A DNA stretch of 64,000 nucleotides. Source: Nemertoderma westbladi (lineage: Eukaryota; Animalia; Xenacoelomorpha). Shown here piece by piece: positions 27,162 to 53,108 of the stretch. The position numbers and the translations under genes are program-made. The stretch lies in contig JAUCBJ010007342.1 of assembly GCA_032718475.1 (NCBI GenBank), forward strand, positions 28,948-92,947, written 5' to 3'. The notes beneath the pieces are model-generated. The model had not been told where the DNA came from and searched no databases. It saw nothing but the letters and a program-made list of their open reading frames with translations. How positions within the stretch are numbered: the stretch's first letter is position 1; the number at the start of each line of letters is the position of its first letter.

Positions 27162-27185
27162 CCTTTCATTGCGAATACGTAGATT

Positions 27186-32841: not shown

Positions 32842-33058
32842 TCAAGAGTACTCGGCCTTCGCTCGAATGGCGTCGTAGTTCGCAGAAACGCAGATATTGT
32901 AATTAAAATGTAATAAAATGTAAATAAAAGTGTATTGGCACCAATACAGTACACGGTACAGCAGTATTGTAGTAGCACAGCAGTACGGTACAGCAGCAAT
33001 TCAACGCAGTCTTCAGTACGCTACACAAATGAATGCCAATAGAAGTCGCTGAATATCA

Positions 33059-34699: not shown

Positions 34700-36488
34700 T
34701 GTAAGGGTCCAGTAGTATACCGCTTACCAGATCCTAGTAACGATGTATCTTACTATGAGACTCTAGTAATGTATACGGGCTTGTACAGTATCTGACAACA
34801 AATCCCAGTCCAGGATATCTAAACAAACAGATATAGTACACAAACGACTACTGGCGAGGAACAGAGCCTTGTATCTATTCTATGTACGTGAGCGGGTCGA
34901 ATGCCTACGTACTAGACAGAAGGATACCTGTCCTCTAACCGGTGAGGCAGATGTACAGTTACAGTAACAGACCAAACTCACGGGAAAACAATCCCCGCGC
35001 AGCGAATCCTAACTATCACTGACAGTCCTAAATACAGTAACTTGCCGCGGTGTGATTTATATGGTTTATATACGAACTAGGTGGTTAACAGACCTAGTGT
35101 AACAATGCTGATCATCCCTGTCGAAATCAGCCTAAAGGTCGTGCCTAAATGTAACAATAACTGATCCCCCTGTACGAAATCAGTCTAAAAGGTCAGGCCT
35201 AAATGTAACAATACCGTTGTCCAGACAAACAACAGTTTAATAACGAAAGTGAAATACTCCTTATCTTGCCGCAACTAAATCAGATCCTAATTTTACAAAT
35301 ACAGATAATTTCTACCTAACGTAATGTATAGTACGCTATAGCTAGTAGAACTTTAAGGGCGATATGTTTTAGGGCGTGTGTGTGTGGGTGTGTTACAAAT
35401 AAAACAATTTCGTGTAATTCCTTTTACTAGGTTTTAATGATTTTCTGACTAAAATGATACCGTGCGCTAGCTACTAAAATAAACTAGTCGCGTTTGTAGA
35501 ACTTTATACTCACGAATGACGTCAAAGCTCTCTCCTTCCTATCCACAACCCAATGGGCAACCACAGTGTTAGTAACTACACCCGTGATCGGCACTAATAC
35601 CAGATTCTGGTTGTAAGATAAGAATAGGGGTTAATCGCTACCGTACGTTAGCTGATCTGGTATACTAATTTAATTCTAGAACTTTGTTGCTGCGGTAGTT
35701 AGCAGCAATACCTATCAGTACGTGGCAAGGCGCGGTAGGATATTAATAAACCTCCCTAGGCCAAGCAGTGTGCCGGTAGCAGAAATGCTCCTTGCCTGAT
35801 CAAATAGCTAACTCCAGACAGGGGGGGGGGGGGGGTACTAATGTACATTCTACAAAGCGAACCGGTACCAAACAGTCAGTGCTATGAATCACTAAATTAT
35901 GGAACGTATGCTGTCCGTACCTAATATGTACTCGCGTACTGACGAATGGCAATAGTTCGCACCTGTAGGAAGTACAGGTTAACCCAGGGATTCGTAGGAC
36001 TTGACAAAGGGGGGGTGTCTGGATATAATTATTTGATCCTAAATTTGCGGCGTCCAGTACGGTGTCACGCTTACCCTGATCTATAGGTCTTACGGCGGGC
36101 AAGGGCGTCGAACAAAGTCTTACCTTCTCACAAAGCGGGCGCTGCATAGCAAGTGGAGTATTTCGAAGGGGCAAAGGGGGTGCGCGGTCAATCCAAATGT
36201 GGGCGCTAGCGTGTTGTGGACATCCCTTCCCTGCGTTGCTTACGGCCTAACGATCTAGGCTGCCATCTCCCTGGTGTTCGGCTGTCCCGAAGTCGGACCA
36301 AAAGAAAACATGTCAGGAAATTGCAGTATATTTACAGTTTTACAAAAGGATTTATCAAATAAAGTTTCAACAAGAAACCGAATTAACTAATTTTACAAGA
36401 ATAAACGATATCAGGATGATAACATGAGTAAGGAGTGATAACCGAAGGCAAACCGGCCTTTTATACTAGAAATTGCACATGGAAACTA

Positions 36489-36690
36489 AACAGAATTTTC
36501 CACAGCTTCACAATTGAGCAATAAAGTGCTTCGTGCTCTATGATTGGCCCAGCTCATCGTTCAACGCAGTCCGGCCCTTACACTAATCTGGGACATGGAA
36601 TCCTAACAGAATTTTCCACTGCCTCACATTTGAGCAATAAGATAATTTATGCCCTATGATTAGCCTGGCTCATCATTCGCTACGCTGTAC
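36489..36690. promoter_or_regulatory. About 116-bp tandem duplication with CCAAT-like boxes in U3 (also in the 5' LTR)
   Basis: aacagaattttccac...tgagcaataa...ctatgatt(g/a)gc...gctcatc occurs twice; the enhancer role is inference. Confidence 0.5.
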
Positions 36691-36750
36691 GCTTCTCATT
36701 GGCCTACCAATTAGCACCACACGAAAATAAATGGCCCCAAAATACAAATT

Positions 36751-36819
36751 TCCCGACTGGGATTCGAACTCGTAACCTACGTAATGTAACCAACGCCTTA
36801 ACCATCTGACCACTACGCC
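36751..36819 (-). other. tRNA-derived Pol III-like cassette inside the 3' LTR
   Basis: A box TGGTCAGATGG, B box GAGTTCGAATCC, TTTT about 10 nt downstream; acceptor and anticodon arms do not pair. Confidence 0.65.
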
Positions 36820-36963
36820 ACGAGAGTACCTAAGGGTTTTATGTGTACAAATATGAATAGGCATATTACATTACTGTAACTTAATCAAAATACGTCGGAT
36901 TTTCAAAAGTTTTTACGTTAAAGTTAAACTACAAATGCTACCTTATAGTGAAATAATTCATCA

Positions 36964-36973
36964 CCGCTCCATG
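36964..36973 (-). promoter_or_regulatory. Polypurine tract of element 2
   Basis: Sense strand CATGGAGCGG immediately before the TGATG start of the 3' LTR. Confidence 0.6.
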
Positions 36974-37588
36974 AAAACAGTAAGTAAGACTGTTTTCACC
37001 AATCGAAATATAAAATATTTACAAACTATTTCTAAATTTACTAGTAGGGCCTAAAATATAAAATATAATCACTATCTAATTATTGCATACTTAATATTGC
37101 AGATACGGCGTAAATACAATCGATCGTACATATAAATACAAATTTACGAATTAACTTTAGTGCCTAAAATACAAAAAAAAGGCTTTCGGTTATCAAGGTA
37201 AACAAATTAAACAAATCAGAACAAATAAATCAAACAAATCAAACAAATAAATCAAACTCTTTCGATAAATCTTTATATATTGTAAATATACATAATAAAC
37301 CTTCACCAAATTAAATCTGTCCAAATATAATATAAACATAATGCGCTAATAACTTTCAAATGAGTCCTCCTGACGATCTAAAAAGTTCGTCCTGCTGGTC
37401 TGGATATCTTCTCCTGAGCACTAATTGCTAACGGTAGGCTCGCAAGCCTTCCTTCCATATCTCGCTCCTCCAAACCCAACATTCAAACATAATGTCCAAT
37501 ATAAATATCCAAATAAAATATCCAAATATAACATCCAAATATAATATCCAAAATCGGTAGGCTCGCAAGCCTTCCTTCCACTCGCTTC

Positions 37589-39358
37589 CTATTCCTTCGC
37601 TGAGCGGGCTCGTCCACGTCCTCTAGTGCGATTGGGGGGTGGTCGAGGTCGAACTGGGCTCGGACTTCGGCGTCGAGTCGTCGGTGGTTCCAAAACGCTA
37701 GGAAAGGGGACGACGGGAGTTTCGCACATCCGTCGTGCGCTCAATCCTCTAAATCCTCGTCCGATTCCAACTGTCGACTTAACATCGGATCGAGTTTCTA
37801 CAACGCTAGGAGGAAGTCGAAAGGGTAGGACTGTTCCGTCCGTTGACACCTCGCTCTCTGACGTCGTTTGAATCCTAATGGGTTCAGTCAAAGCGTATCC
37901 TGTCCCTCCGCGTGGTTCTCTAGCAAGGGAAACCGTGCCCCGAGTCATCCGGATTTGCGACTTCGATGTCGTCCTCTCGGCGACATTCACTATCTTCTTA
38001 ATCTCTTGTCCGGCCTTCTGGGCTTTGAGTATACGAAATTGCTGATCATCCTGTGGGTGACGCGTCTTCTCCGCTAACGGCGTGGCCTTGAAGCCAGTCT
38101 CACGCAAAACGTCGGTCTCGTCCAGAATGCACGAGGTTACGCGTTTGTGATAAAATGCGCTCCGGTATGCCCAAGCTATCGAATGCCAGGCTCCTCGATT
38201 CCGCTGTTCAACTCGCAGTTTATCGAATTCTCCGGCGGTAATCTTGTTCACCACAGTTTGAAAGTTCCAAGTATTCTTGTTGTCCGGGTGCACTTGTAAG
38301 AAATAGTCCCGCACAACTTTGAATCCACTGTCCAACGGCAATATATCCAATACCTCCAACAATTCATCGTACTGAGGCATAGCCGATACATATCCTTCCT
38401 TTGACATTATGAGAGGGTTTACGGCCCAAAATCCCAAATGTGCTCTCATAGGGAAGCGGCGTCGCTGCGTCGATACATGCTCGTCTGCTAGATCCTCCCA
38501 ATGGTCGAATAATTGTCGAACGATTTTAACTGACATGTGCTCATAGGGGACGTCTCTAAGTTGACATTCAGATGCCCTATGGCCCTTAATATTACAATAA
38601 ATACACTGCGCCACGAAACGCCAGCAAGTGTAGAAAGTGTGCGAACGTTGATCCCCGCACCAGTTGCATACTAGATCCGGTAGAGATATGTGCTTCGCTC
38701 CGCACTTCTTTGCGTGATGGCCAGTTGCTCCACATCTGCCACATATAGTGTTGGCAGGATACCAAACTCGCTCATAGATGAGGTCTCCGATGGGGCGAGC
38801 GCTACCGTCCACGTGATAATTCTCATCATCCGGGTCAGTCGGTATGTTCGTCTCCGTAGGTTGTACACAAACCATGGCATCGCTTTTCTCTAACTCGCGT
38901 ATCTCAGTTCGCGTCTTCCTTGGAAGGTTCTCTTCTATTTCTATGAGTTGCCGTAACGGTTCGTCTATTAGCGCCAACTCGGTCGGATCCACATCGTCAT
39001 GATGGGCGGTAGGCTCGCGAGCCTTCCAGGATCCTTCCGGGCGTTCGAATTCCGCGTGGCGTTCCCCGTCATAGGGTACTAACGTTAACATCGACGGTCT
39101 GTCAACTAGACTTCCCGCGTGAGTGAGATAGACGTCCCTGAAAACGCTAAGTCCCGCTCGCGTGAAAACTTCGCAGTGCGCATCGGTGTTATAAAAGGGT
39201 TGGAGAAATCGTCGGAATACATCAGTATGCGTCCTTCCTCCATCGTAAAAGGTATGTCCTTCGCCAAGACATAACGGGTGTCGCTTTAAGGTTCTGGATA
39301 CTACGTCCGCGATGAAACAAACGTTAACCGAAGATTCTATCGCTAAATAGTATTGCAA
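37589..39358 (-). CDS. ORF3 of element 2, C-terminal part: ExoIII-like motif, three CCHC zinc knuckles, basic R/S/P tail
   Basis: QYYLAIE; CGRCGATGHHAKKC, CNWCGDQRSHTFYTC, CIYCNIKGHRASEC. In frame with 41344..39374 across a single TGA. Confidence 0.82.
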   Translation of the reverse strand: MQYYLAIESSVNVCFIADVVSRTLKRHPLCLGEGHTFYDGGRTHTDVFRRFLQPFYNTDAHCEVFTRAGLSVFRDVYLTHAGSLVDRPSMLTLVPYDGERHAEFERPEGSWKAREPTAHHDDVDPTELALIDEPLRQLIEIEENLPRKTRTEIRELEKSDAMVCVQPTETNIPTDPDDENYHVDGSARPIGDLIYERVWYPANTICGRCGATGHHAKKCGAKHISLPDLVCNWCGDQRSHTFYTCWRFVAQCIYCNIKGHRASECQLRDVPYEHMSVKIVRQLFDHWEDLADEHVSTQRRRFPMRAHLGFWAVNPLIMSKEGYVSAMPQYDELLEVLDILPLDSGFKVVRDYFLQVHPDNKNTWNFQTVVNKITAGEFDKLRVEQRNRGAWHSIAWAYRSAFYHKRVTSCILDETDVLRETGFKATPLAEKTRHPQDDQQFRILKAQKAGQEIKKIVNVAERTTSKSQIRMTRGTVSLAREPRGGTGYALTEPIRIQTTSESEVSTDGTVLPFRLPPSVVETRSDVKSTVGIGRGFRGLSARRMCETPVVPFPSVLEPPTTRRRSPSPVRPRPPPNRTRGRGRARSAKE

Positions 39359-39373
39359 GATTATCCGCGGAGG

Positions 39374-41344
39374 TCAAGTAATCGCCCAATACACGCAACC
39401 TCGCCACTTCAACTGTGACTCGAACTCATTTACGCCGGGGGTATCTCCCTCTCCGTATACGTCCGTGTATTTGTTCCTCTTACTCTCCTTGTAATCCCAA
39501 CTGAACATCAGATATGAGATATAACCCGTCCCAGTTTTTAGCGTGTTATACTCTCTAAAGTATCCTTGCTCAATAGCCCAAAGCAACAATGGTCTAGTAT
39601 CCACGTATGGCGTAGGCAATCGGTCCTCTTCCGTGGGCATCCCTGCAAAGTCGCTAATGAGGTCATCCCGTACACCGGATCCGATCTTGACGATGCTCTT
39701 ATCCAACACAACGTCTCGCACGGCCTTTGGCAACATCCTAGCTTCTATGCTACAAGCCAGGTCCATGGATTTAACTATCCGTTTTATCATCGCGTGTCTT
39801 TGCGTCGTTCCTTCCGGCATAGGCATCTTCCTATCACTCCTCTGTCGGCTGAAGACATGTAACACGCCATCTGGTGCTCTAATCTGTATCGTCTTTGAAG
39901 TGAGGCTTTGCTGATGGCTTCCTCCTTCATTATCGTAAAACATATATCCATTCTCTTTCAGAGATCGGCTAGTCACGTCCCAATCGTCGAGTAAATCATC
40001 GGTAGGGTTCCAAATTCTCCCGATCGACTTTTCATCATCGAAACTAATAGGTTTACCAGTCCAATTGGTCGCGATATCGGTGTCGGTCTCAAACGTCCCA
40101 ACTCCGATCCATAATCGAATCGTTTTCGTCAGATATCCTCGCAAGATACAAGGTGCGATATCCGTCCCCGCGCGATCCACTTCCTTAAAGTCCGTGATAT
40201 GTGGAGGCACGTTGCGTACGATTTTTTGAACTATTACTTTACGCAACTCGGTTGATTCTAACACATCACCGAAGGTGACCGATGGGAGGAAATCCAGGTT
40301 CGAGATGATCTCCGGGTGTTCAACTATAGGGATCTCGTAAGTTGTCTCCTTCCGGGTCGGTATACTAATAGGAAAACTAGTTGGTCTCGCAACCGGTACT
40401 ATTGCTCCAGTAGAATGGGGCTGAGGTTCTCGCGTCATCTCAACGTGAGGTATCTGTAGTCTCTGCGACAAACGCTGAGCAAAGGTGATACTATCGAAGA
40501 GCTCGGGTGTCATCTCCTTGGGTTCGGTTTGATCGTGGGATATCCAATAGAATGGTAGGCTCGCAAGCCTTCCGCCGAACTCCTCGATCTCGCCTTTCTC
40601 GTACGCCTTGTACGCCCTGTAGAGGCTCAAAGCTTCCCGTTTCTCTTGTGTCGACTTGTTAGACTCGTCCACTACCATGCTGTAGACGTCTGGTTCGACT
40701 AATTTAGGTTCGTAAATAACGATCTCACCCGCGTTCGGTCCACTCATCTTAAATGAATGATACGGATTTGTCAAAGGGTATCCGCCTTCTTGGTAACGTA
40801 GACTTTGGTGGTGTGAACATCGCGCTAATATCGGCTCGGGGTTCTCCGAATTCAACCGCATAGGAATCGCGTTGTCTTGCTCGCGCATACACGCTCCACA
40901 TTTATAAAACAGTTTGTATACGGAAAACGCGTCCTTGGTCTCTGGATCCGCTCCTCGAGCGCGTCTATAAAGATGCATTCCTTCAAATTCGTCTCTAGCT
41001 GCAGGTAAAGGTTCGTTTACCGTCAAATATTGCAGCGTATGATACAATCGGCGTATTTCGGTGTCTGGATCCTCGCAAATGTCGCTAGCGTCGCATAACG
41101 CATCGTAGGGATATAACGCATTGTATTCCGCGCGTAATTCCTCCGTTCTTTTGTTGTATGCGTCCAACCGCTGTCGCGTAACATTCGGGTCCGCCTTGGA
41201 TTTAGCGAGCTTGGCCGTACTCCTAGCCATACTCTCCACTCCAAACACACTAAAGTTTTTAGCTCCATAACGATTGAATGGCGCCTGGTGCTCCTGTTCT
41301 TGCGTAAACCCTTGACGTAACTCTTTATACATCTTCTCCGCCAT
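39374..41344 (-). CDS. ORF3 of element 2, N-terminal part: CxxC...CxxH domain plus DEDDy-type (WRN/EXD/RNase D-like) exonuclease
   Basis: ExoI FYDNEG; LPKAVRDVVLDKSIVKIGSGVRDDL fits the LP..L..ll.d..i.KvG.gi..D ExoII pattern; YVDT; homologous to ORF 1798..2. Confidence 0.82.
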   Translation of the reverse strand: MAEKMYKELRQGFTQEQEHQAPFNRYGAKNFSVFGVESMARSTAKLAKSKADPNVTRQRLDAYNKRTEELRAEYNALYPYDALCDASDICEDPDTEIRRLYHTLQYLTVNEPLPAARDEFEGMHLYRRARGADPETKDAFSVYKLFYKCGACMREQDNAIPMRLNSENPEPILARCSHHQSLRYQEGGYPLTNPYHSFKMSGPNAGEIVIYEPKLVEPDVYSMVVDESNKSTQEKREALSLYRAYKAYEKGEIEEFGGRLASLPFYWISHDQTEPKEMTPELFDSITFAQRLSQRLQIPHVEMTREPQPHSTGAIVPVARPTSFPISIPTRKETTYEIPIVEHPEIISNLDFLPSVTFGDVLESTELRKVIVQKIVRNVPPHITDFKEVDRAGTDIAPCILRGYLTKTIRLWIGVGTFETDTDIATNWTGKPISFDDEKSIGRIWNPTDDLLDDWDVTSRSLKENGYMFYDNEGGSHQQSLTSKTIQIRAPDGVLHVFSRQRSDRKMPMPEGTTQRHAMIKRIVKSMDLACSIEARMLPKAVRDVVLDKSIVKIGSGVRDDLISDFAGMPTEEDRLPTPYVDTRPLLLWAIEQGYFREYNTLKTGTGYISYLMFSWDYKESKRNKYTDVYGEGDTPGVNEFESQLKWRGCVYWAIT

Positions 41345-41384
41345 CGTATACGAATATATGCGGTTACATATCGTTACGTTTCTA

Positions 41385-41415
41385 CTAGATGAAGCACAAA
41401 ATAGAGGTTAGATGT
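41385..41415 (-). promoter_or_regulatory. Candidate 3' splice site upstream of ORF3
   Basis: Sense ACATCTAAC branch point, pyrimidine tract, TAG/TAG. The same ACATCTAAC...CAG occurs at 1882-1860 in element 1. Confidence 0.6.
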
Positions 41416-42077
41416 GAGGTGACTCCAGAGTTTGTTGGTTTTTGGCTCAACTCTGCTCTAAACCCCAACCCATTTTGCCTAATGATTTCGGGTTCGCGTG
41501 ATTTCGCACTGGCTCCTAATCCAAAATTGTGCCGATAAAAAACGAATTCCGGGTAAACTAGCCGCGAGTCTAAAATACTCACCTTTTAATTTCCCAAACT
41601 ACGTTTCCCAAGAAAATAATGCAGTCGAGAATTAATTGGTCAAAATAATAGTAGACACGACTACGTAGAACAAGACCGATTTTCTTTTCCAAAAAAAAAT
41701 TTATCGGTAGGCTCGCAAGCCTTCCATCCGCTCTTGTCCTCCCCAATTTTAATTTTATCTAGCTGTATTCTAGAATTTGCTTTCACTGGAGAATCGTTTT
41801 TCTTAAATTTAAATCCAAATAAATGGATTTGTCTAATAATTTTTGAAAAATTGTCTCACTTGTGGGTTCCAAGTGGAATTCCATTCCTACTGTACACACA
41901 ATCCCGCTCCTATGTGATACATAAGGGTACTACCCTCCATGTTCACGTATAAAGACAATGGAATTCCACCGCTGTCTCTATCTACAGTGAAGAGGATTAC
42001 AAATGCACGTACAGTAATACAAATACAAATAACTAAAATACAGTAGGTCTATGTGGCGGCCAACAAAGGTCCCACAT

Positions 42078-43922
42078 CTATTTACTAATATTGGGTGGAG
42101 ATTTGTAGTCTCCTGTCTCGTTTCTAGTCTCCTCAAGGAGTACGAGACGTTGTACAGGTCTGTCTACGGTACGTCCGTCGATAGTCCGTACAGTAACTGT
42201 CCTCACTACGCCAGATGTAGGGTGCGTGGTCAAAATGACTCCAGTCAGCCAAAACCGTCTTCTCAGATTAGCTTCAGCCAATAAGACATGGTCACCACGT
42301 CTTAAACACCGGGTATTTAGATACCAAGAGGTTCTGGTCGAAATAGAGGGCAAATAATATTTCTGCCATATTTCCCAGAATTTATTTGCAAGCAATTGAG
42401 TGATTTTCCAAGCCTTGTTGCCGTATCCGTCACTATCAACGGGTACCGAAATGGGCAACAATGTCGTCGGCGCCTGCATAAGCAGGTGCGCTGGTGTCAA
42501 GGCAAACTGTACGTCGTTATTGTCTGGGATCAAAGCGATCGGTCTGGTATTTAAGATTGCTTCGATTTCTATTAGTAACGTCGTTAGTTGGTCGTCTGTC
42601 AAGATGTGTTGCGTCGGTACGACTTTAGCCATAGCTGTCTTTATTGAGCCAATCAGCCTTTCCCAAACGCCGCCTCTCCACGGACTGTCTGGAGTATTAA
42701 AAACCCAAACAATACGGTGAGGACGTAGTTCCTCGGAAATCTGGTTTTGGTCCAATTTTCTCAAAGCTCTGGTTATCTCGTTCCGTGCACCCACAAAGTT
42801 TGTCCCTTGGTCGCAGTATATGGATTTGACCAATCCACGTCTAGCGATAAATCGCCGTAAGGCTAGGATAAAGGCATTGGTGGACAAGTCTGTCACTCGC
42901 TCTATATGGACAGCTCTGCTGGCCATGCAAGTGAAGATCAATCCCCAACGTTTTACCTGTACCCTTCCGCGTTTCGCGATTATGGGTCCAAAACAGTCTA
43001 TCCCTGTCTCAGTGAAAGGGGGTCTAAACGCCTGTAATCTAGCTAATGGTAGTTCACTCATTTCTTGGTGTCCTATCCTCGCGTGCACCTTCTTACAAAT
43101 AATACAGTTCCGTGTTACCGAACTCAGTGCCTTACTAGGTCTAATCAGTACAAACCTCGAGCGTAAGTGTGATAGACAGTGGTGTCTACCTACGTGTTTG
43201 AGTTGTACATCTGCGTCCAGTATCATAGCGCGCTGTAATTCATGGTGTTGCGGTATGATGATAGGATACCTAAAGTCAAGTGCAAAGTCGATGTTTTGGA
43301 GTCTGGACTTGTGACAATGTAAGCCCCGGTAAATAATCGGACTCCAACTCAAAATCGGTGAAGACTTAATCTGTTTACCTTGTTTGATCGCTGTGAACTC
43401 TCGTGCGAAATATCGCAATTGATAATGTCTAATGATATCAACTTCACAGTGGCCAATTTCCTTTAAGGTAAGTCTTCTAGGAAAGTCGCGTTTGCCTCTG
43501 GCATATTGTCTCAATCGTTTGAGCCATGCTAACTTGCGGCACGCGTCAGTCCATGATCTAGTTAGGTTCACTATCCTGTCTACGTAAGTGTTAGTGACGT
43601 CATCGGGTAAGGTGTAGTCGTAGTGTGGATACTTGTCTGGACTTGGTAGGCCCACGGGCCTTCCGGTAGGTTTATCTGAGTCCCCAAGTACGTCAATCTC
43701 TACGGTCTTACCTTTGCCGTCCGCACCTAATGTGTCGACTGGCAGTAATGGTTTCAACTCTACAGTGTCAGTGTGTTCCTGTGAGCCTGTAAGCTTCCTA
43801 ACCTTAGTCACCACTTTACCTGTAGGTAAGTCAAGTACCTTCTTCGAGCGGAGTGTAATCCCTGTGGCCACCGCTTGTGTCCTTCTGGGCTCCTCCCCGA
43901 GGCGCACCCACGAGGCGGACAC
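42078..43922 (-). CDS. pol: Integrase of element 2 (separate ORF; frame open from 44072, no ATG before the zinc-finger region)
   Basis: CIIC; TGIDCFGP, YCDQGTNF, GGVWERLI; LNTRP; C-terminal LLEETRNETGDY shared with element 1. Confidence 0.92.
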   Translation of the reverse strand: MSASWVRLGEEPRRTQAVATGITLRSKKVLDLPTGKVVTKVRKLTGSQEHTDTVELKPLLPVDTLGADGKGKTVEIDVLGDSDKPTGRPVGLPSPDKYPHYDYTLPDDVTNTYVDRIVNLTRSWTDACRKLAWLKRLRQYARGKRDFPRRLTLKEIGHCEVDIIRHYQLRYFAREFTAIKQGKQIKSSPILSWSPIIYRGLHCHKSRLQNIDFALDFRYPIIIPQHHELQRAMILDADVQLKHVGRHHCLSHLRSRFVLIRPSKALSSVTRNCIICKKVHARIGHQEMSELPLARLQAFRPPFTETGIDCFGPIIAKRGRVQVKRWGLIFTCMASRAVHIERVTDLSTNAFILALRRFIARRGLVKSIYCDQGTNFVGARNEITRALRKLDQNQISEELRPHRIVWVFNTPDSPWRGGVWERLIGSIKTAMAKVVPTQHILTDDQLTTLLIEIEAILNTRPIALIPDNNDVQFALTPAHLLMQAPTTLLPISVPVDSDGYGNKAWKITQLLANKFWEIWQKYYLPSISTRTSWYLNTRCLRRGDHVLLAEANLRRRFWLTGVILTTHPTSGVVRTVTVRTIDGRTVDRPVQRLVLLEETRNETGDYKSPPNISK

Positions 43923-45050
43923 CTTTCCACCACCCCTGGGGCCAGTCTGACTGATGTTATTATCAGACCGGGCCGGAGGGTGGCCTGATGCTTCCCGGGT
44001 TCTGTTTTCGGTCCCCCGATCACACCAGCACAGCTCGTCGAACGTGTAGCCAGATGGGCGGCTACTGTCAACTTACTGTGGCCTGACTGTACATTGAGCC
44101 AACTCAAAGTATAACAAAGAGTCAACCGGCAGGTGGACCAGTCGATAGCGATCGAGCACCAAGGTCGCCCTTGGGCCTAACCGACGGTCTTGTCCCATGT
44201 GGGCTTGCGCTACCCAACATTGGAATTTTGACACGTTTTCACCTGCCTCGCCGGCAGTATTTAAAAAACAATACTGTCTGTAGCTCAAAAGCTACTGAAC
44301 AAGTAACCACTTACCAGTCACTGTACACGTGTACTCAACAGATGTTCACAAAATCAAGTACACAATGGTAAGCACAAAATCGAACACATACCATGCACAC
44401 ACAGAAGACAAAATCAGGAAAGACAAAATCGGGGTCAAATCAGAGGGGACAAATTGTATCGACCAAGTAGCAAATCGAGAGTACCTTATTTTACCGACAG
44501 GGTAAAATAACTTTGTGTGCACAAAGTATGCTGGGGCGCAGTAGAGATATGGTCCTACTAATACCAGCGGCGTCTTGTCCAACTGGCAAGGGTTCCCATA
44601 CCCACTCGCAGTGGCCACACATACAATCACGTGTACTCACGTACCCACAGCAACAGAAAACTCAAGACCCGACGGTTTTTCCAATGCCACCAAAGACCAA
44701 TCAGCTGAACATGGAGACAATAACATATAGTATCAAAAAAACGGAACAGCTGACGGTCAATGGAACCATCCAAGCCCCAAGCAAACTGCCACTGATCGCC
44801 CACATACAAAACATAGTTCACGCCACATGAGCCACAAATCACGCCATGCCACCACCCCTACTGTGTACAGGACTGGCAGTACGGCAACAGGCCGACTAGA
44901 CGGTACCACGGCACCATGGCAATTCATGGTTCGTTAGACACGAGGGCCTTAAGTATCTCCCTTGCACTTAGACGACAATTTAACGTGCCCCCGGACCCTC
45001 ACGAGTCCGCCGCCGCCTGCTAAAGGCACCCCTATAGAGACCTCACCTCT

Positions 45051-48000
45051 TTAGGTACCTCTGTCGTCCAAAGAAGTCAAATTTGGTACGTCTCTAAACG
45101 TCCGCTCCAATGGGTCTTCTAATGGAGTGTCTAGTAGACAGTCTGGTGAAGCGTCTGGTGAACAGTCTGGTGAGACGTCTGGTGAGACATAGCGCGGAAC
45201 ATCCGGCGAAATGTCCTGTCGTCGGTCCCAAAGTCTGTCTAGCGTAACTTCTGTCAGAAAGTCTGGTCTAAAATCTGGTAGACAGTCTGGTGGACAGTCT
45301 GTCGAGATGTCTGGTGAACAGTCTGGTGAGACGTCCGGTAGACATTCTGTCGAGAGTTCCATCAAACAATCTGGCGAACAATCCGGAGAACAATCTGGTG
45401 TCTCTTCTGGTGAATAGTCTGGCGAGTAATCTGGTGTACAATCCGGCGAAACGTCTGGTGAAATCTCCCGCGGAACATCCGGCGAAAGATTCGTACAAGC
45501 GTCTGGTCGAGTGTCTGGCGAGACGTCTGGCGTAATGTCAGGTCTGGCATCCAGGTCATCAGATTTCGTCCGTCCTTTTTTCCTCTTGACCTTGGCGTTG
45601 GCTTTCGCTTTAGACTTGACAACCTTGTCGAGTTTTATCTCGGCACCCTCTGGTATGGTGTTGGTTGTCGCGTCGAATAACGGTGGCCATTCGTCTGATG
45701 GTCGCTGCAGGAAATCGGGTCCTCTAAACCAAAAGGATTTATTGTCCGGTTTACAAAAGTCAAGTGGTTGCATCCCCCGTGACGCAATGTCAGCTGGGTT
45801 CAGCTTCCCTGGACAGTGACGCCAATCTTGTTTGAGCGACCGGTCTAGTATTTCAGCCCGTCTGTTGGCTACGAAAGTCTTGAACTCGAATGTTTCGTTG
45901 TTTATGTACCAAAGTACCAACGTCGCATCCGTCCAATATGTGACCTTCAAGTTAGCCTCCAGCTCGCGTTGAACTAGACTGACAATATCGGTGGATATCG
46001 TCCCGGCTTGCAGCTCCCCACGAGGTACAGTCATATACTTCAATGGCATTGTTCTAGCCCTTGAAGTAACGAGAGACACATCGTAGCTGTCCGATGTCAC
46101 TTGTCGTCTAAGGTATAAAGTAACCCCCAATCCATCCTTGCTAGCGTCACTAAAGCTGTGAAGCTCTAAATCAGCAGGAAAGGTGGTTTGCAAAGGAAAG
46201 TATACCCTTGGTATGGTATAGTCTTGTAGGAACGTCAGTTGGGCTTCCCAGTCCCTCCATCGCTCAGCTAACTTTTCTGGGATGGGATCGTCCCATTCCA
46301 GTCCGGCTTGCCAAATGCTGCGGAGTATGATCCTGGCATGTAGGATCACTGGACTAATGAAACACAATGGGTCATACAATCGACTCATAGTCGATAAGCA
46401 AGTCCTCTTAGTGAGAGGTCTAGTCTGGTCGTTGGACCTTACACGTACCCTAAAATTGTCGGTGTTAGGGTCCCAACTAAGTCCTAGTACTTTGGTCGTC
46501 GGCAGTGGTTCTAGGTCTAAGTCTAAATCACCTCCGCTACGATCCATCGGGTCAAATGAGTTCACCAGTTCGGGTTCGTTGGAAGCGAACTTCGTCAGGT
46601 GAAATCCGCCCTCAGCGAGACAATCCTGGAGTTGGTGTGCTACGGTTGTAGCGCGCTCCAAGGTGTCACAACTCTTGAGGCCGTCATCCACGTAGAAATC
46701 TCGTTCCACGGTCCGAACTACTTCTGGGTCAAATTGGTCTCGTCTGTCCAATGCTGTCTGCTTCAATGCGTACATGGTGCAGTTGGGGCTGTCCCTGGCT
46801 CCGAATACTCTTACCTGCATTTGGTAAGTTTCTGGCGGAAGTTGTAAGTTTCCGTCCGGATACCAAAGAAACCTCAAACTGTCCCTGTCCCGCTCCAAAG
46901 CCTTAACCTGGTGAAACATGGCCTCTACGTCACAGGTGAAAGCCACTTTGCGTTGTCTAAAATGCATTAGGACTCCCATGAGGTAATTATTCATATTCGG
47001 CCCGTCCATCAGTTCGCTGTTCATAGACATCCCTTGGTAAAGCGCAGCGCAGTCGTTGACTACACGCACCTTGCCAGGTTTGTCCGGGTGTCGAACAAAA
47101 TGATGTGGCAGGTAATATGTCTGGTCTGTAGTTACCTCAGGATTTAACATCCTAATGGCGTATCCCTTTTGGAGATACGTCTGAAGTTGTGCATTGTATT
47201 GCATATGGGCCGTCTCGTCTCGCAACAATCGCTGCCTTATTGATTTGAGTCGCCTCAAAGCAAGCGGGTAATTGTTAACGAGTTTTGGTTGTCCATCGCG
47301 CCACAACATACCAACCTCATAGTGGCCATTCGCGGTCTGGCGAATGGTATCTCTCATAATATTTAATGACCGTTTTTCCTGTTCTGACATAGCGGTCTCG
47401 TAACTACCGGGTTCTGCTGAGTCCTGTTCCAACCATTGTATGGTCCGTTCAGTCAGCAGTCGGTCAAGCGCTGCTTGCACTGCGCCATGGTCCTCGTCCA
47501 CGTCTTCGTCCGCTGCGGTGGCTAGTGTCAATGTGTCTGGTAGGCTCGCAAGCCTTCCGGTGTCACTAGTCGGCGTCGAATTGTCGTGCGGCGGTTTGAC
47601 AACTTCTTGATCTATCGGTAGGCTCGCAAGCCTTCCAAGATCAACGACCGGTGTCGAAGCCTGGTGGGTGGGGTCAATGACCTTCGGATTTTTCGGTAGG
47701 CTCGCAAGCCTTCCAAAATCCTCGTTCATCGAGTCATCCACAGCAACAACCCTCAGGTCTTCAGTAGTCAATACAACCTGGTCTACTGCAAGTAGTTGTA
47801 AGTCAGAGGTCCGTATGGTCGTGTCCAGATCGGTTACGTCAGTATCGGTGGCGTCTGCGTTAGTGACGCAAGTCTGTCGTAGTGCCGTCCGTACAATTGG
47901 ACCACGGGAGTGTGAAGGAGAATTATCTATCGTGTTAGTCAATAAACTACACGTACTCAAAACGTCGTCCTCCTGGTCACTTACCTCTAGTGAACGTATT

Positions 48001-51000
48001 GGTGCTCTAGTATACCAACCTATGGGAGTTCTACATGCGTAGGGGTTGCCCGCTGTAATAACAGATGGGCGTGTCTCCCATACCTGATGTAAGTTAAACT
48101 GGTCTGTCCCAATTAACATCGCAATGGAACGATAATTAACAGGACATTCCGGTATTCCAAGGTGTCGGAAATACTTACGATCTTCCGGAGATTGCTCTGG
48201 CACAGGGCCGAGCAAGTTACTAAAGTCCTTCGTAGCTGCAAAGGTCAAATTTCTTACCGGAAGTAATGAGCGCTCCTCCTTGCTGTGTTCCGCTTTGGAA
48301 AGAAGAGTGTCTAAAGTTAGTTTTACTCTTGTCACAGGAATCGCTCTCTTACCATGCATGCTGCTTACAGTATACTGAGCAGTCTTACCTTGACTCAAGT
48401 CCGTAACTACGTCGGCTACTTGTTCGTCGACATAGCTATGCGATGACGCAGAGTCTAAGATGGCGTATATACGCTTGCTCCCTCGGGTTCCGGTAATCTT
48501 TATAGGAATCACGCTAAACCCTTTCAATTGGTTCTGTGTGAGGAGCGTTATCGATGGCTGTTCCTCACCTGCATGCACGTAGAAAGTGTCGTCTTCCTCC
48601 TCGTCCTCGTCCGATGATCCTGACTGATCCATACAGTCGGTATAAAAGGTACGGATCTCGCGCGGCGCACGCTCCTTATAAAGCGCGTCGCATCTAGCCG
48701 CTTTATCTGGATGCTCTCGTCGAAAGCGTCTGGTCGGAGTATGACTGGTTGTGTGAAGCAACGCGTCATGGTTACGTCCACACAGAGAACATGTATCATC
48801 GCTCGGGCAATCCTTCCGGACGTGTCCTGGCTTCATACATCTCCAACAGGAATCTAGAGATCGGATTTGGAGTCTCCTTTCCTCGATCCCTAACTCTTTA
48901 AAAGCGCGACATCCACGTAGTTTATGTCCGCTATGGTTTCTGCCGTTCCGCTCGCAGTATGAGCATCCCACAAAGTCCGCCGGCAACTGTTGTCGTGGCT
49001 GCGTGGTGCCGATAGGCGTCAGAACTTTAGAAGTCTCAGTAGGGGTGGCGTAAGTAACGGCTTTCGCGTTCGTCGGAAACGGTTTAGTCCGATTCGGCGC
49101 AGAAACAGTTATCCCTTCCGCCGCGATATGGTGATCGGTATAGTTCGATCGAGTCTCGATCACGGCCTCCCGTGAAATAAGTTGATAGACATCGGTGAGT
49201 TTTAATAACCCTCCGGCCTCTTCGCGCTGGTACTCGATGCGTCGCCATTCTCGTCGTAGTCGATGATGAAGTCGACCGATTATTCGAATGAGAACCGTCG
49301 GTGCGTTAGCGTACTCGAGTTGTCCAATGGACCGTAAAGTCCCTATAGCGTTCTTTATTTCGTCCGCGAGTCGTAAAAGGTCGATCGGTCTCGAAATGTT
49401 GCCTCCTCTGCAGAGGTCTTCAATAATGGATTTAGCCATGGCGACATTACCGCCGTAAATCGAATACAAACGGTCGTACGCCAACTCAAAGGCATCGGGA
49501 ACTCCAATAAAGGTTTCCGCTAATCGTTTCGGCTCACCAGACAGAACTTGGAGCAAGTAGTTAAACTTCTCCGTCGAGGTGAAAGCACACTTAGCGATCT
49601 GGGACTCTACGTAGTCTACCAGTGTGCGCCAGTGTTTCGCGTTGCCAGAGAACTTCGGCGGTTGCTGTGCCGGTAATCCGTGTCTAGCCGCGAATTTCGC
49701 AATCTCGCTAACTAAATCCAACTGTCCGCGTCCCTGTTCGGCGGCGTCGTCCAGTCGCTCCCTTCCGCGCGTTGTTCGTCGGTAGGAATTATTAACGGGA
49801 TCTTCTTCTCGATGTGTCGGAGTCCGTCTAGTCTCCTGTTCTCTCCTCGGTGGTCGATGTTGTCTAGGTTGTTCCAACTCCACGCTGGTCCGTGATCGAT
49901 CCGACGGTTGCGCTTCGAGTCGTTCTTCGAGTTGAGCTATTCTGTCCGTCATCTCGGTGAACTGTTTAGCGCTGATCGTTTCCGCTGGTTTCAACGTGGG
50001 TTTCTGTTGGGGTGTTTCTCGTGGAGGATTGTCGATATAGGGGTTCGTCGATCTCTCCTCTCGTTTGCAATCTTCCGCCGCTCCAGTACGGAATATTTCC
50101 CGTTCCGTCGACTCCGAGTCACTAGATGAATCGCTGTCGTCCGGATAAGGTGGTTGGCGGGTTCGTGTCCGGCGTATTATCCTCGATTTCGTCCGTTGCG
50201 GTCCGGAATCTACGGCTCTCCGTTGTTCGGTAGGCTCGCAAGCCTTCCACGAAGTCGTAGGTCTCGCTATACGTTGTCCGATCCCGTGGGTACTACCCAC
50301 CTCCATCCTCCTTCGTAGTTCGGTAGGCTCGCAAGCCTTCCACGAAGTCGTAGGTTGCGTCGAACATTGTGTCAACGGTCGAGTGAAATAGTCGGGTTTC
50401 GTAGTCGGTCTGTAAATAACTGGATTTGCACAGCACGTCACAGGTTTAACTTGTAATGGTTTACTCACCTGTTTAATGGTCATAAACGCAGGTTCCTCTC
50501 TTCCTACAAGTAGACTACGACTTACTGTAGGTGGACTAGTAATGTTACCTGCTAAAATTGGCGATGAAGTCGCCCTAGGTTGCGGTATTTCCGTCACAAC
50601 AAACCTGTTGCCTTGCGTCGAACGCACAGGCGTTATTTCCTTAGGTTTCGTAACGAAGACCGGTTTTATCGGAGTCGTGGGTTTGAGCATAGGAATAACT
50701 TGGGGAAAACGTTTACAGTAATCCTCGACGAACTCCTCTCCTTGATCTATCGCTCCCACGCTTCCTTCCTCGATCCGCTTCTGTATTCCGCGATATCGAG
50801 CTTCCATACGATCCAGGGCAGACAAGTCGTGTCCAGTTCGCGATCTCATAGATCTATCTCTCGCGTCGAGTTCGAGGTCCGCTTGCGCGTTCGCTGTCTC
50901 GCGCGATCTTCGATTCAATTCGAACTGTAGTTGCATCTCCCTTTCGCGTCGATCTGCATCCTGTTGTTGTGCCGCTAATTCCGCTTCCTGTATAGCTAAT

Positions 51001-52103
51001 CGAGCGTTTATTTGCCGCGCCTCCAACTTGGCACGAACGTCGGATGCTGCTTTCTGCCGTGCTAACTCGTCGGCTGCCGCTTCTCGCACTAAGTCCTCCT
51101 CCAGTCTGCGCATTTCTGATGCTTCGAATTCAGCTTGCGCCTTGAGTTGTGCAATTCTTGCCTTGTCTTCTCTACGTTGTTTCTCTCCTTCGATGGCGAT
51201 CTGTGCCATCTGGTGTCGCGCTTCTTCCTCGGCGACTTGTTGTCGGCGTGCAACCTCCTGTTGTTGTCGAGTAATTCCAGACGCTGTTCTACTAACGTCG
51301 CCAACGTCGCCAACGTCGCTCCGTACGCTAACGAACGATCTATCCAGTGGTGGATGTTGGTAGGCTCGCGAGCCTTCCATAGTGAGAACTTCCGTCGTCC
51401 CTCGCGGTTCGACTTCCGGTTCGTCGATCGGTACGCCGCATCTACGAAGAAAATTGGTCAGCGTTTCCAACCTTCCGTCCAGGCAGTAGAGTTCTTCTTC
51501 CTCTTCGGGTTGTAACAACGCGTCCGAAACTGACTCACCTAGCAGTTGGTCGAACTGCTCCTGTTGAGCCAATCTTATCACCGACTTAAACTGGATAAGG
51601 CTTTCTCTCGCACTTACCAATTTATCTACTATCTTTACCTGAGTAAAGTTGTCGCCACGCAACTCTGCAAGTTCGTGCAAACCTTTAAGTTTATCTACGG
51701 AGGCATGTACCCTACTTTCTATCCTTACCTGTAAGGTGTAGAACTCGTATCTCGACATCGGGGCGGTTAACTCGCGTAAAACGCGAAAACCTTCTCCGAG
51801 GTTCCGAGTAATCTGGGCCATGTGTCCTCCTATACTTCTAATAACGTTCTCCTGGCTTCCAGTCGAACTTACCATGTCCGGTTCCCGTGATCTAGTCTGC
51901 GGGACGGTAAGGAAATCTTCGATCCTGCCGTCGCCACGCGTTGCGGCTTCCGGTATTTCCGTTCGGGGTACCGGCGACGCAAGCGGTGTGACATCGGTGG
52001 AATCTCGGGTTCTCCTTCTCGGTTCGTCTACTGTCGATCTGTCCGGGTCGCACGAGTCATAGTCGGTAGGTGGGTATCTCGTCGAATGGGGTGTGTCACT
52101 CAT
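45051..52103 (-). CDS. pol: Gag-PR-RT-RNase H polyprotein of element 2 (2350 aa) with a D-x-S-P repeat tail
   Basis: Coiled coil; CSYC...HKLRGC, CWRCMKPGHVRKDC, CSLCGRNHDALLH; ILDSAS; YLPHHFV; FYVDD; FSDAS; HCPGKLNPAD. Confidence 0.95.
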   Translation of the reverse strand: MSDTPHSTRYPPTDYDSCDPDRSTVDEPRRRTRDSTDVTPLASPVPRTEIPEAATRGDGRIEDFLTVPQTRSREPDMVSSTGSQENVIRSIGGHMAQITRNLGEGFRVLRELTAPMSRYEFYTLQVRIESRVHASVDKLKGLHELAELRGDNFTQVKIVDKLVSARESLIQFKSVIRLAQQEQFDQLLGESVSDALLQPEEEEELYCLDGRLETLTNFLRRCGVPIDEPEVEPRGTTEVLTMEGSRAYQHPPLDRSFVSVRSDVGDVGDVSRTASGITRQQQEVARRQQVAEEEARHQMAQIAIEGEKQRREDKARIAQLKAQAEFEASEMRRLEEDLVREAAADELARQKAASDVRAKLEARQINARLAIQEAELAAQQQDADRREREMQLQFELNRRSRETANAQADLELDARDRSMRSRTGHDLSALDRMEARYRGIQKRIEEGSVGAIDQGEEFVEDYCKRFPQVIPMLKPTTPIKPVFVTKPKEITPVRSTQGNRFVVTEIPQPRATSSPILAGNITSPPTVSRSLLVGREEPAFMTIKQVSKPLQVKPVTCCANPVIYRPTTKPDYFTRPLTQCSTQPTTSWKACEPTELRRRMEVGSTHGIGQRIARPTTSWKACEPTEQRRAVDSGPQRTKSRIIRRTRTRQPPYPDDSDSSSDSESTEREIFRTGAAEDCKREERSTNPYIDNPPRETPQQKPTLKPAETISAKQFTEMTDRIAQLEERLEAQPSDRSRTSVELEQPRQHRPPRREQETRRTPTHREEDPVNNSYRRTTRGRERLDDAAEQGRGQLDLVSEIAKFAARHGLPAQQPPKFSGNAKHWRTLVDYVESQIAKCAFTSTEKFNYLLQVLSGEPKRLAETFIGVPDAFELAYDRLYSIYGGNVAMAKSIIEDLCRGGNISRPIDLLRLADEIKNAIGTLRSIGQLEYANAPTVLIRIIGRLHHRLRREWRRIEYQREEAGGLLKLTDVYQLISREAVIETRSNYTDHHIAAEGITVSAPNRTKPFPTNAKAVTYATPTETSKVLTPIGTTQPRQQLPADFVGCSYCERNGRNHSGHKLRGCRAFKELGIEERRLQIRSLDSCWRCMKPGHVRKDCPSDDTCSLCGRNHDALLHTTSHTPTRRFRREHPDKAARCDALYKERAPREIRTFYTDCMDQSGSSDEDEEEDDTFYVHAGEEQPSITLLTQNQLKGFSVIPIKITGTRGSKRIYAILDSASSHSYVDEQVADVVTDLSQGKTAQYTVSSMHGKRAIPVTRVKLTLDTLLSKAEHSKEERSLLPVRNLTFAATKDFSNLLGPVPEQSPEDRKYFRHLGIPECPVNYRSIAMLIGTDQFNLHQVWETRPSVITAGNPYACRTPIGWYTRAPIRSLEVSDQEDDVLSTCSLLTNTIDNSPSHSRGPIVRTALRQTCVTNADATDTDVTDLDTTIRTSDLQLLAVDQVVLTTEDLRVVAVDDSMNEDFGRLASLPKNPKVIDPTHQASTPVVDLGRLASLPIDQEVVKPPHDNSTPTSDTGRLASLPDTLTLATAADEDVDEDHGAVQAALDRLLTERTIQWLEQDSAEPGSYETAMSEQEKRSLNIMRDTIRQTANGHYEVGMLWRDGQPKLVNNYPLALRRLKSIRQRLLRDETAHMQYNAQLQTYLQKGYAIRMLNPEVTTDQTYYLPHHFVRHPDKPGKVRVVNDCAALYQGMSMNSELMDGPNMNNYLMGVLMHFRQRKVAFTCDVEAMFHQVKALERDRDSLRFLWYPDGNLQLPPETYQMQVRVFGARDSPNCTMYALKQTALDRRDQFDPEVVRTVERDFYVDDGLKSCDTLERATTVAHQLQDCLAEGGFHLTKFASNEPELVNSFDPMDRSGGDLDLDLEPLPTTKVLGLSWDPNTDNFRVRVRSNDQTRPLTKRTCLSTMSRLYDPLCFISPVILHARIILRSIWQAGLEWDDPIPEKLAERWRDWEAQLTFLQDYTIPRVYFPLQTTFPADLELHSFSDASKDGLGVTLYLRRQVTSDSYDVSLVTSRARTMPLKYMTVPRGELQAGTISTDIVSLVQRELEANLKVTYWTDATLVLWYINNETFEFKTFVANRRAEILDRSLKQDWRHCPGKLNPADIASRGMQPLDFCKPDNKSFWFRGPDFLQRPSDEWPPLFDATTNTIPEGAEIKLDKVVKSKAKANAKVKRKKGRTKSDDLDARPDITPDVSPDTRPDACTNLSPDVPREISPDVSPDCTPDYSPDYSPEETPDCSPDCSPDCLMELSTECLPDVSPDCSPDISTDCPPDCLPDFRPDFLTEVTLDRLWDRRQDISPDVPRYVSPDVSPDCSPDASPDCLLDTPLEDPLERTFRDVPNLTSLDDRGT
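45130..45550. repeat. Degenerate 12-bp coding tandem repeat (DVSP/DCSP)
   Basis: gtctggtgaaca / gtctggtgagac units, about 35 copies. Confidence 0.85.
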
Positions 52104-52134
52104 GTCTTATTATATACGTCAAGTACGGGTAATA

Positions 52135-52322
52135 AAATGTCAAAGTGTCTGAATGTTGAAGTGTCAAACTTACCTTGGTATATATAGTATCTATATACCC
52201 TAACCGGTACAAATAAATCAACAAGTCAGAACGTCGAAATGTCAAAATGTCGAAATGTACAAATGTCAAACTTACCTTGATATATATATATATCATATAT
52301 ATACCCTAACCGGTACAAATAA
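52135..52322 (-). promoter_or_regulatory. Duplicated leader segment, each copy with a consensus splice donor
   Basis: CAAG/GTAAGT with GT at 52275 and 52173, upstream of the gag ATG (52103). Confidence 0.5.
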
Positions 52323-53108
52323 AACTAACAAGGTATATAATAAAATAAGTAGTAATCTAGCCTACCGGCTAAATTTGTACGAATAAGTGAGATAACGGTA
52401 TACGTTAACAAAATATAGATCAACAAGTATAAACAATAGGCCAAACAGCAATGTCCAAAGGGAAAATATGTACCAACAACACTACTAAATAGACAGTGAA
52501 ACCCACAAATTTTGAGTACTACTGTGCTTTCTTAAGTTTGAACGACGCGAGTCGTAAAACTTACGTTCCTTTGATCTTCCAGTCGTACAAATTCCCAAAT
52601 ACAAACCGGACGTGGGTCTTTCCGTTTTTCGGCGGCGCGGACGAATTTATTGTCTCCCAAACTTTGCGAAAAGCGGTCTAATCCTTGAAGCGGTCCAGAA
52701 ATGAGTCCTTGAGTCCTGAAAAGGTCGAAGGTGAGAGTTTTACTTCTACGCTTACGAAAATCTTCCTAGGTACCGATACAAATTGGTCTTTAAACCCTAT
52801 GTACCTTTTCAAGTACCGAAAAGTAACACCGCACACACACGGCGTAAAACAAAGTGCTACAAACTAACTGTTAGCTAGTCAAAGATTAAATACGAAAGTA
52901 CTAGCTACCCTAAAAGCCTACTGAAGCAGGGGACGTTCTAAATTACTAAATTTACTAACCTTAGATTTTAAATATCTCCTACTTTCAATAGCTAACAGTT
53001 CGAAATAATACTATACGCTAATTTATATAGTACTTCCTACTGTAAGGTAGGAATACTATACACTATGGTAGAAATATTATATACTAATTTATATAAAATA
53101 CTTCCTAC

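Follow-up and report, generated by a model that had tools for sequence, protein, structure and literature searches.

In HIV-1 (human immunodeficiency virus type 1), the knuckles of the nucleocapsid protein (NC) bind the second and fourth residues (G2 and G4) of the SL3 and SL2 tetraloops, GGAG and GGUG (PMC7599994), and the NC of Rous sarcoma virus (RSV) binds the UGCG tetraloop of the stem-loop SL-C (PMC5035970). In Moloney murine leukaemia virus (MoMuLV), pseudo-palindromes are converted into extended duplexes, and SL-D kisses via two G-C pairs (PMC7599994). The packaging and dimerisation signals of retroviruses and of the retrotransposon Ty1 sit in the leader (PMC5454406). Here we describe a family of short hairpins in a 64-kb stretch of DNA from Nemertoderma westbladi (assembly GCA_032718475.1, contig JAUCBJ010007342.1, positions 28,948 to 92,947; referred to as the window). 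Its carrier is a long terminal repeat (LTR) retrotransposon, element 2, and a second element in the window, element 1, has hairpins of the same kind with another stem. To our knowledge, RNA selection and dimerisation by LTR retrotransposons beyond Ty1 and Ty3, amid dozens of co-resident families, are largely unknown. As judged from its sequence pattern, the hairpin family is a real, selected and strand-specific RNA feature.

Results

Hairpin copies in element 2

Element 2 lies on the minus strand of the window, so this is its sense strand. It contains 12 copies of the hairpin: nine are exact matches to a 20-mer, two have the loop CGCG, and one has a compensatory pair change together with the loop CGUG. 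All 12 are on the sense strand, distributed over three reading frames, the spacer between the integrase (IN) and a third open reading frame (ORF3), and the 3' untranslated region (UTR) (Table 1). A preliminary description of the window had listed ten copies. All ten starts are correct (nine exact matches and a one-base variant at 51359), but two copies had been overlooked. One of these, at 39008 in ORF3, is a one-base variant identical to that at 51359. The other, at 43645 in the integrase ORF, differs from the 20-mer at four positions and reads GGAAGGCC-CGUG-GGCCUACC on the sense strand, its closing pair being changed from U-A to C-G.

The number of matches to the 20-mer expected by chance was 0.00 (0 of 100 shuffles). 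No other site with up to six mismatches was found in the 64 kb, except for reverse-strand echoes of the palindromic copies, and a covariance model run with filters off retrieved no additional copy in element 2 (next match at E 0.68). Four more CYYGYGRG cores in element 2 have no stem and were left aside; the rate in the outgroup elements described below predicts about 1.7 by chance. The hairpin is predicted to fold with -7.6 kcal/mol, and the A-A mismatch in its stem, seen before, is present in all 12 copies. The variants with a CGCG loop are 14-bp perfect palindromes at the DNA level.

The earlier proposal that conservation acts on the nucleotides holds up well. The hairpin is translated as GRLASLP, WKACEPT and EGSRAYQ in the three frames, as had been stated, with WKAREPT in the copy at 39008, and since the first six residues of GRLASLP alone could be encoded in 20,736 ways, it is the nucleotides that are conserved. 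Between the tandem copies, the spacers are identical at 30 of 58 positions, compared with 20 of 20 in the hairpins. Among other genomic copies of the region 47505-47750, none of the seven variable sites falls within the 60 hairpin bases, a weak result (P ~0.14) from a set with no contigs from run X5 and two from run X4. For element 2 as a whole, 40 of the 1406 variable sites in public reads are listed.

Element 1 and its hairpin

Element 1 (1-14300, minus strand; its 3' end falls beyond the window) is, by sequence comparison, a sister family of element 2, with 57% identity in the reverse transcriptase (RT)-RNase H (RH) region and 48% in the integrase. It has seven hairpins of a family of its own, all on the sense strand, with a stem unlike that of element 2. 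An eighth YGYG hairpin in the terminal region of element 1 has an unrelated stem and was left out of the count. In a Markov control, 0.18-0.22 YGYG hairpins were expected per element, with 0.18 for element 1 and a maximum of two in 100 runs. In both elements the tags are spaced at one per 1-4 kb and occupy the coding strand only.

Four positions match directly between the elements: the linker between protease (PR) and RT, the integrase linker, the IN-ORF3 spacer and the ORF3 linker. In protein alignments, the hairpin peptides of element 2 in the integrase linker and in ORF3 stand opposite KPAGL of element 1, where the DNA forms a different hairpin, CCAAACC-YGCG-GGUUUGG. Two sites in gag, which did not align, match by order only, and the element 1 copy at 7694 has no counterpart in element 2. 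The preliminary description had suggested a hairpin of the sense RNA that might mark "self"; a sister element with its own stem and the same loop core agrees with this idea. The case is now stronger than it was, because the sister family adds covariation.

Features shared by the 19 hairpins

The 19 hairpins of both elements have the core CY-YGYG-RG. The loops are UGCG (10), CGCG (5), CGUG (2) and UGUG (2), which gives the consensus YGYG, and loop G2, loop G4 and the second C-G pair are invariant in 19 of 19. Stable tetraloops follow the consensus UNCG or YNMG and are closed by C-G. UNCG, the loop type named in the preliminary description, fits only the 10 UGCG loops; YNMG fits 15 of the 19, and a C-G closing pair is found in 7 of the 19. 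A thermostable UNCG loop was thus rejected as the conserved trait, the loop consensus being YGYG.

In the stems, 89% of the cells are paired, and five of eight pairs are changed on both sides. The covariation score was 0.572 versus 0.253 after shuffling (0 of 500), in a control that ignores relatedness. Better evidence, in our view of the alignment, is the swap between U-A and C-G at the closing pair, which happened separately within each family (at 43645 and at 7694). The residual stem mismatches are A-A in element 2 and G-A in two copies of element 1. Within the loop, positions 1-4 and 2-3 form standard pairs (including G·U) in all 17 distinct rows, so that the loop is self-complementary. 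At least five changes in the loop and two wobble changes in the stem are required, and each of them makes G·U on the sense strand; none makes A·C there, as it would on the opposite strand. By our own estimate, a strand-blind model acting on double-stranded DNA would give such one-sidedness with a probability of about (1/2)^7. The sense-only G·U changes point to single-stranded RNA as the selected form. Decay of methylated C at CpG was also considered as a source of the loop variants and rejected, because CpG is not depleted (observed/expected 1.07 and 1.19) and the changes are biased to one strand.

Within families, the predicted energy of a duplex minus that of two hairpins is -4 to -20 kcal/mol. 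Across families, the predicted gain is positive or near zero (above -1.5 kcal/mol) in 25 of 28 pairs, and the three exceptions all involve copy 7694.

Searches outside the two elements

As outgroup, we used the best 80 of 550 confirmed Bel/Pao loci from metagenomes (530 kb). In these loci, YGYG hairpins number 22 on the sense and 18 on the antisense strand. They include no family of alike hairpins, and the loci have no dispersed 13-mer and no match to the covariance model (best E 1.4). Two loose three-member groups (L054 and L076) consist of dissimilar loops or a contig repeat. With a chance-level strand balance and no comparable family in these loci, a general Bel/Pao feature was rejected. 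Inside the window, the preliminary description had seen no hairpin in the LTRs or outside the element, and we likewise found none in the terminal direct repeats, a LINE-like element or a third Bel/Pao piece. The motif was absent from viral contigs (0 matches), and the covariance models of Rfam gave a single match (E 0.13), below the gathering threshold and away from the hairpins. Polymorphic insertions with target-site duplications (TSDs) had been raised as a possible counter-argument; a repeat of 3 bp abuts one of the 12 copies, and the other 11 lack any. A micro-transposon was rejected on the lack of a TSD at these 11 copies and the lack of copies outside the elements within the window.

Table 1. 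Hairpins and other features of elements 1 and 2 (window coordinates)
Feature	Position	Strand	Details
Element 2 hairpin	51359..51378	-	loop CGCG; gag N-terminal part; frame EGSRAYQ
Element 2 hairpin	50322..50341	-	loop UGCG; mid gag; WKACEPT
Element 2 hairpin	50229..50248	-	loop UGCG; mid gag; WKACEPT
Element 2 hairpin	47695..47714	-	PR-RT linker; GRLASLP; first of three, 78-nt spacing
Element 2 hairpin	47617..47636	-	PR-RT linker
Element 2 hairpin	47539..47558	-	PR-RT linker
Element 2 hairpin	43645..43664	-	closing pair C-G, loop CGUG; integrase ORF N-terminal linker; GRPVGLP
Element 2 hairpin	41706..41725	-	IN-ORF3 spacer; 291 nt upstream of putative branch point
Element 2 hairpin	40554..40573	-	ORF3 linker; GRLASLP
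Element 2 hairpin	39008..39027	-	loop CGCG; ORF3; WKAREPT
Element 2 hairpin	37556..37575	-	3' UTR
Element 2 hairpin	37433..37452	-	3' UTR
Element 1 hairpin	10625..10642	-	loop UGUG; gag N-terminal part
Element 1 hairpin	9027..9044	-	loop CGCG; mid gag
Element 1 hairpin	7694..7711	-	loop CGCG, closing pair U-A; between DUF1759 and knuckles
Element 1 hairpin	6408..6425	-	loop CGUG; PR-RT linker
Element 1 hairpin	4203..4220	-	loop UGCG; integrase N-linker; opposite element 2 copy 43645 in the alignment
Element 1 hairpin	2116..2133	-	loop UGUG; IN-ORF3 spacer; 234 nt upstream of putative branch point ACATCTAAC
Element 1 hairpin	1009..1026	-	loop CGCG; ORF3 linker; opposite element 2 copy 40554 in the alignment
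Element 2 5' terminal direct repeat	53104..55382	-	97.25% to 3' copy; no hairpin
Element 2 3' terminal direct repeat	34695..36964	-	no hairpin
Element 2 gag-PR-RT-RNase H ORF	45051..52106	-	2351 aa; DUF1759, CCHC knuckle at aa 1087, Peptidase_A17
Element 2 integrase ORF	42078..44072	-	Integrase_H2C2, DUF5641
Element 2 ORF3	37589..41344	-	~1250 codons; after integrase
Element 2 putative branch point and acceptor	41384..41415	-	ACATCTAAC, pyrimidine tract, AG before ORF3; splicing inferred
Element 1 ORF3	1-1798	-	
Element 1 equivalent of putative branch point and acceptor	1861-1882	-	ACATCTAAC at 1874, pyrimidine tract, AG

The carrier element

Terminal direct repeats flank the gag-pol region of element 2, which has the order PR-RT-RH-IN. 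Because it encodes DUF1759, a CCHC knuckle, Peptidase_A17, Integrase_H2C2 and DUF5641, element 2 is a Bel/Pao LTR retrotransposon; the Pfam matches to Peptidase_A17, DUF1759 and DUF5641 are above cut-off in both elements. The nearest database relatives of its RT-RH region are 38-44% identical and belong to elements of marine invertebrates and fish. In public sequencing runs, the family is high-copy and polymorphic.

No TSD was seen at the ends of the 2.28-kb repeats, and the 3' repeat, which is cut by a satellite, apparently continues into a second leader. The 3' copy may open a second tandem element that is truncated. In each repeat, some 670 nt from its start (54700-54716 and 36300-36316, minus strand), CA is followed by a T-rich spacer and a TGG resembling a primer-binding site (PBS). 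On this basis the LTR proper may be short and end near 54711, followed by the PBS-like TGG at 54700. A tRNA-like stretch lies within the LTR at 55170-55245 and at the equivalent site of the 3' repeat (minus strand), with look-alikes of what we take, from consensus, to be an A-box and a B-box; ARAGORN detected no tRNA gene in the window.

Between RNase H and integrase, element 2 has a 1.19-kb segment (43872-45058) where element 1 has overlapping ORFs. Some contigs of runs X1, X2 and X5 skip this segment and others hold it, and in X5 its depth greatly exceeds that on either side. The end of pol (45051-45545, minus strand) carries a degenerate 12-nt repeat encoding SPD-x units. The remainder of the window includes a long AT-rich 15/17-nt satellite adjoining element 1 (14469-20300), the LINE-like element (25167-34700, minus strand) with an Ulp1 protease (Peptidase_C48), an endonuclease and an RT, broken by 30-nt and 36-nt satellites, and the third, AT-rich Bel/Pao-like pol fragment (59700-64000, minus strand), which has neither hairpins nor an enrichment of GGTAAG.

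ORF3 and putative splicing

Both elements encode an ORF3, with 41-43% identity between the two families. In element 2, an in-frame stop at 39374-39376 splits it; nearly all contig depth (runs X1, X2 and X5) has another letter there, and the stop appears to be private to this copy. ORF3 has three CCHC knuckles, at 38743, 38668 and 38605, and its N-terminal domain, in which there are Cys/His residues, is conserved. A feature look-up of residues 400-656 in the Atlas, prompted by a motif that we took to be WRN-like, returned clusters of DNA_pol_A_exo1 (PF01612) in 24 of 30 hits, the top one being "Werner syndrome-like exonuclease", with 171 of 256 features in common and a score of 0.92. Residues ~465-660 thus probably adopt a WRN-type 3'-5' exonuclease fold, which we regard as a lead from model features. 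In Pfam, NCBIfam, PHROGs and PDB, ORF3 gave chance-level matches at most. AlphaFold models of the exonuclease-like part were unusable (predicted local distance difference test, pLDDT, 30.5 and 40.1), and Foldseek found no match at E <=0.001. No homologue was found by word search (7328 candidates; 174 candidates at E up to 10) or among 1.84 billion representatives, and none of 360 pattern matches in metagenomes was confirmed.

The 9-mer ACATCTAAC, a putative branch point by its consensus, occurs only twice on the minus strand of the window, once per element. Together with the pyrimidine tract and the AG ahead of ORF3, it suggests an env-like spliced mRNA. GGTAAG, a hexamer resembling a 5' splice site, is enriched on the sense strand of gag-pol (21 versus 2.2 expected in 2557-10943, and 10 versus 2.0 expected in 42078-52106, minus strand) and absent from ORF3 of element 2. 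The outgroup loci showed no enrichment (64 versus 98.7 expected). From these counts, GGTAAG may be a second dispersed RNA signal, bound by U1.

Discussion

The fixed loop, the family-specific and homogenised stem and the duplex energies are the reasons why we favour one reading, to which we assign a probability of roughly 45%: the hairpins may be dispersed packaging or dimer-linkage signals read by the NC of Gag, with family-specific stems that favour homodimers. The stems would fold in the element RNA, and the CCHC knuckles of NC would dock onto G2 and G4 of the loop. NC would then open the pseudo-palindromic hairpins, with their self-complementary loops, of one genome and those of another and pair them as extended duplexes, so that the two genomes are zipped together lengthwise. 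If these duplexes formed mostly within a family, the stem would act as a barcode against co-packaging of sister families. The homogenisation of the copies inside each family would then be accounted for as well. More tentatively, the clade may have replaced a single packaging signal in the leader by an RNA barcode, made of a wobble-palindromic hairpin at intervals of 1-4 kb in the coding sequence, a loop read by knuckles and a stem that is swapped and re-homogenised in each family; the orphan ORF3, with its knuckles and what would be a captured WRN-type exonuclease fold, would perhaps be its reader, or the destroyer of untagged RNA.

Several observations weigh against packaging or dimer linkage. 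The leader of ~2.6 kb has no hairpin (none in 52107-55382), and the first copy lies ~720 nt into gag. Four of the 12 copies of element 2 are downstream of the putative ORF3 acceptor, so spliced RNA would carry the tags too. A 4-nt loop can kiss via only about two pairs, and a favourable self-duplex energy is partly inherent to any near-palindrome. The hairpin is predicted with a probability of at least 0.7 in its 160-nt context for only nine of 12 copies in element 2 and four of seven in element 1. Copy 7694 is predicted to pair across families, at -7 to -9 kcal/mol with three of the four element 2 hairpins tested, and doubly changed pairs were no more frequent than in shuffles (233 of 500). 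In RSV, changing UGCG to GAGA lowered NC binding but not the selectivity of Gag, and changing GC to UU caused no loss of packaging (PMC5035970). The 80 outgroup elements package their RNA without such repeats, so the hairpins would be an addition specific to this clade, and the evidence comes from two families only.

In the strongest competitor, which we consider unlikely, the hairpins serve ORF3 as response elements. This accessory protein, likely made from a spliced mRNA, would coat the element RNA by means of its three CCHC knuckles (and a probable exonuclease-fold domain), so as to export, localise or shield the unspliced genome. Both elements have ORF3 as well as the hairpins; the 80 outgroup loci yielded neither. 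The three knuckles of ORF3, the exonuclease clusters among its Atlas hits and the ACATCTAAC and AG common to both elements would suit such a protein, and the GGTAAG enrichment in gag-pol suggests that the unspliced RNA may need help with export. There is a precedent in the CERV protein of Cer1 from C. elegans (PMC10309623). As in Cer1 and in the system of Rev and the Rev response element (RRE), the accessory protein would probably come from a spliced mRNA, and many donor-like sites lie in the unspliced RNA. The RRE, however, is one large structure, whereas the candidate sites here are very small and scattered, and some are not in the putative intron: four of 12 lie downstream of the putative, inferred acceptor, in the ORF3 exon and the 3' UTR, and not within the intron as a Rev-type element would. 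For CERV, no RNA element was found in the available part of PMC10309623, and the collections searched contain no protein related to ORF3. The co-occurrence is based on two related elements, and the absence of ORF3 from the outgroup is a weak test, as only 11 of 57 loci with the integrase end reach at least 2 kb beyond it. The exonuclease call is a lead only: searches of Pfam, NCBIfam and PDB turned up nothing for it, nor did two low-confidence folds. Finally, an ORF3 target explains neither the self-complementary loop nor, unless ORF3 reads the stem, the near-identical stems.

It is improbable that a host RNA-binding factor acting in localisation, export or translational control reads CY-YGYG-RG, with stem identity as a by-product of copying. 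An 8-nt core common to two families with far-diverged neutral sites would be expected of such a factor, but unrelated Bel/Pao elements, including the third one in the window, lack the core, and the 20/20 identity, A-A mismatch included, beside spacers that are 52% identical is left unexplained.

Still less probable is a neutral or nearly neutral spread, in which template switching during reverse transcription copies a pause-inducing hairpin to new sites and homogenises it, flexible protein linkers being the only places where it survives. Indeed, the coding copies lie in linkers or unalignable regions, clusters spaced at 78, 93 and 123 nt show that stretches were duplicated locally, and over 45 nt around the two gag copies the identity is 95.6%. 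Yet aligned positions in the two families hold different stems with the same loop, the changes are compensatory or wobble-only, the spacers have decayed around intact hairpins, and TSDs are lacking. Least credible of all are palindromic double-stranded DNA sites for a dimeric protein (an insulator or anti-silencing factor) on the integrated element: the perfect palindromes of the CGCG variants and a dispersed arrangement would suit chromatin protection, but all copies share one orientation, all of the symmetry-breaking changes in the loops and wobble pairs (at least seven) are G·U-compatible on the sense strand only, the arms differ between families and covary as pairs, and the LTR promoter region has no copy.

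If the packaging and dimer-linkage reading is right, the idea of dispersed packaging signals extends to LTR retrotransposons and gains a mechanism of concerted evolution that separates families, and a k-mer or hairpin scan could then look for tags of this kind in libraries of transposons. Elements 1 and 2 amount to a natural swap experiment: where the two sister families correspond in position, the loop is shared and the stem differs. ORF3, an orphan accessory protein whose fold is probably that of an exonuclease, is a lead in its own right. In the literature consulted (mostly open-access, at abstract level, Repbase not covered), we found no report of Bel/Pao RNA signals, dispersed family-specific hairpins or a third ORF combining exonuclease and knuckles.

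Comparison with known systems

With the Belpaoviridae (Bel/Pao), elements 1 and 2 share LTRs, a gag with DUF1759 and CCHC, the PR-RT-RH-IN order, Peptidase_A17 and DUF5641. They differ in the extra 3' ORF, the dispersed hairpins and the sense GGTAAG enrichment, none of which was seen in the 80 outgroup loci.

The hairpins resemble SL-C of the RSV micro-Psi and SL2/SL3 of HIV-1, which are likewise short stems with a tetraloop whose G2 (RSV) or G2 and G4 (HIV-1) occupy the pockets of CCHC knuckles (PMC7599994, PMC5035970). The SL-C loop, UGCG, is also that of 10 of the 19 hairpins. The RSV and HIV-1 sites are single and lie in the 5' leader, whereas elements 1 and 2 have 7-12 copies of these candidate sites, which run through the coding regions, extend in element 2 to the 3' UTR and spare the leader. 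The dimer initiation site (DIS) of HIV-1, DIS-1/DIS-2 and SL-C/SL-D of MoMuLV and PAL or SL1a-SL3a of Ty1 are alike in their self-complementary loops and in the switch from hairpin to extended duplex, here predicted. The HIV-1 DIS is a 6-nt palindrome, compared with a 4-nt loop that tolerates wobble, and these systems have one to three such sites near the 5' end, compared with many near-identical copies over 14 kb. Measured against a Psi/DIS, the hairpins thus have the self-complementary loop and the pseudo-palindromic stem (as predictions, with a 4-nt loop) but not the position.

The dispersed packaging signals of single-stranded RNA (ssRNA) viruses and hepatitis B virus (HBV), for which MS2 is the paradigm, are also many stem-loops on the genome strand with a common loop motif (PMC6281560), and this pattern is found here. 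In the available part of that source, the signals of ssRNA viruses and HBV share sparse features only. In elements 1 and 2 the copies of one family have stems that are near-identical over their full length, the sister family has another stem in their place, and the carrier is an LTR retrotransposon. By analogy, the hairpin system would work partly like the Psi/DIS hairpins of retroviruses and partly like the packaging signals dispersed along the genomes of ssRNA viruses.

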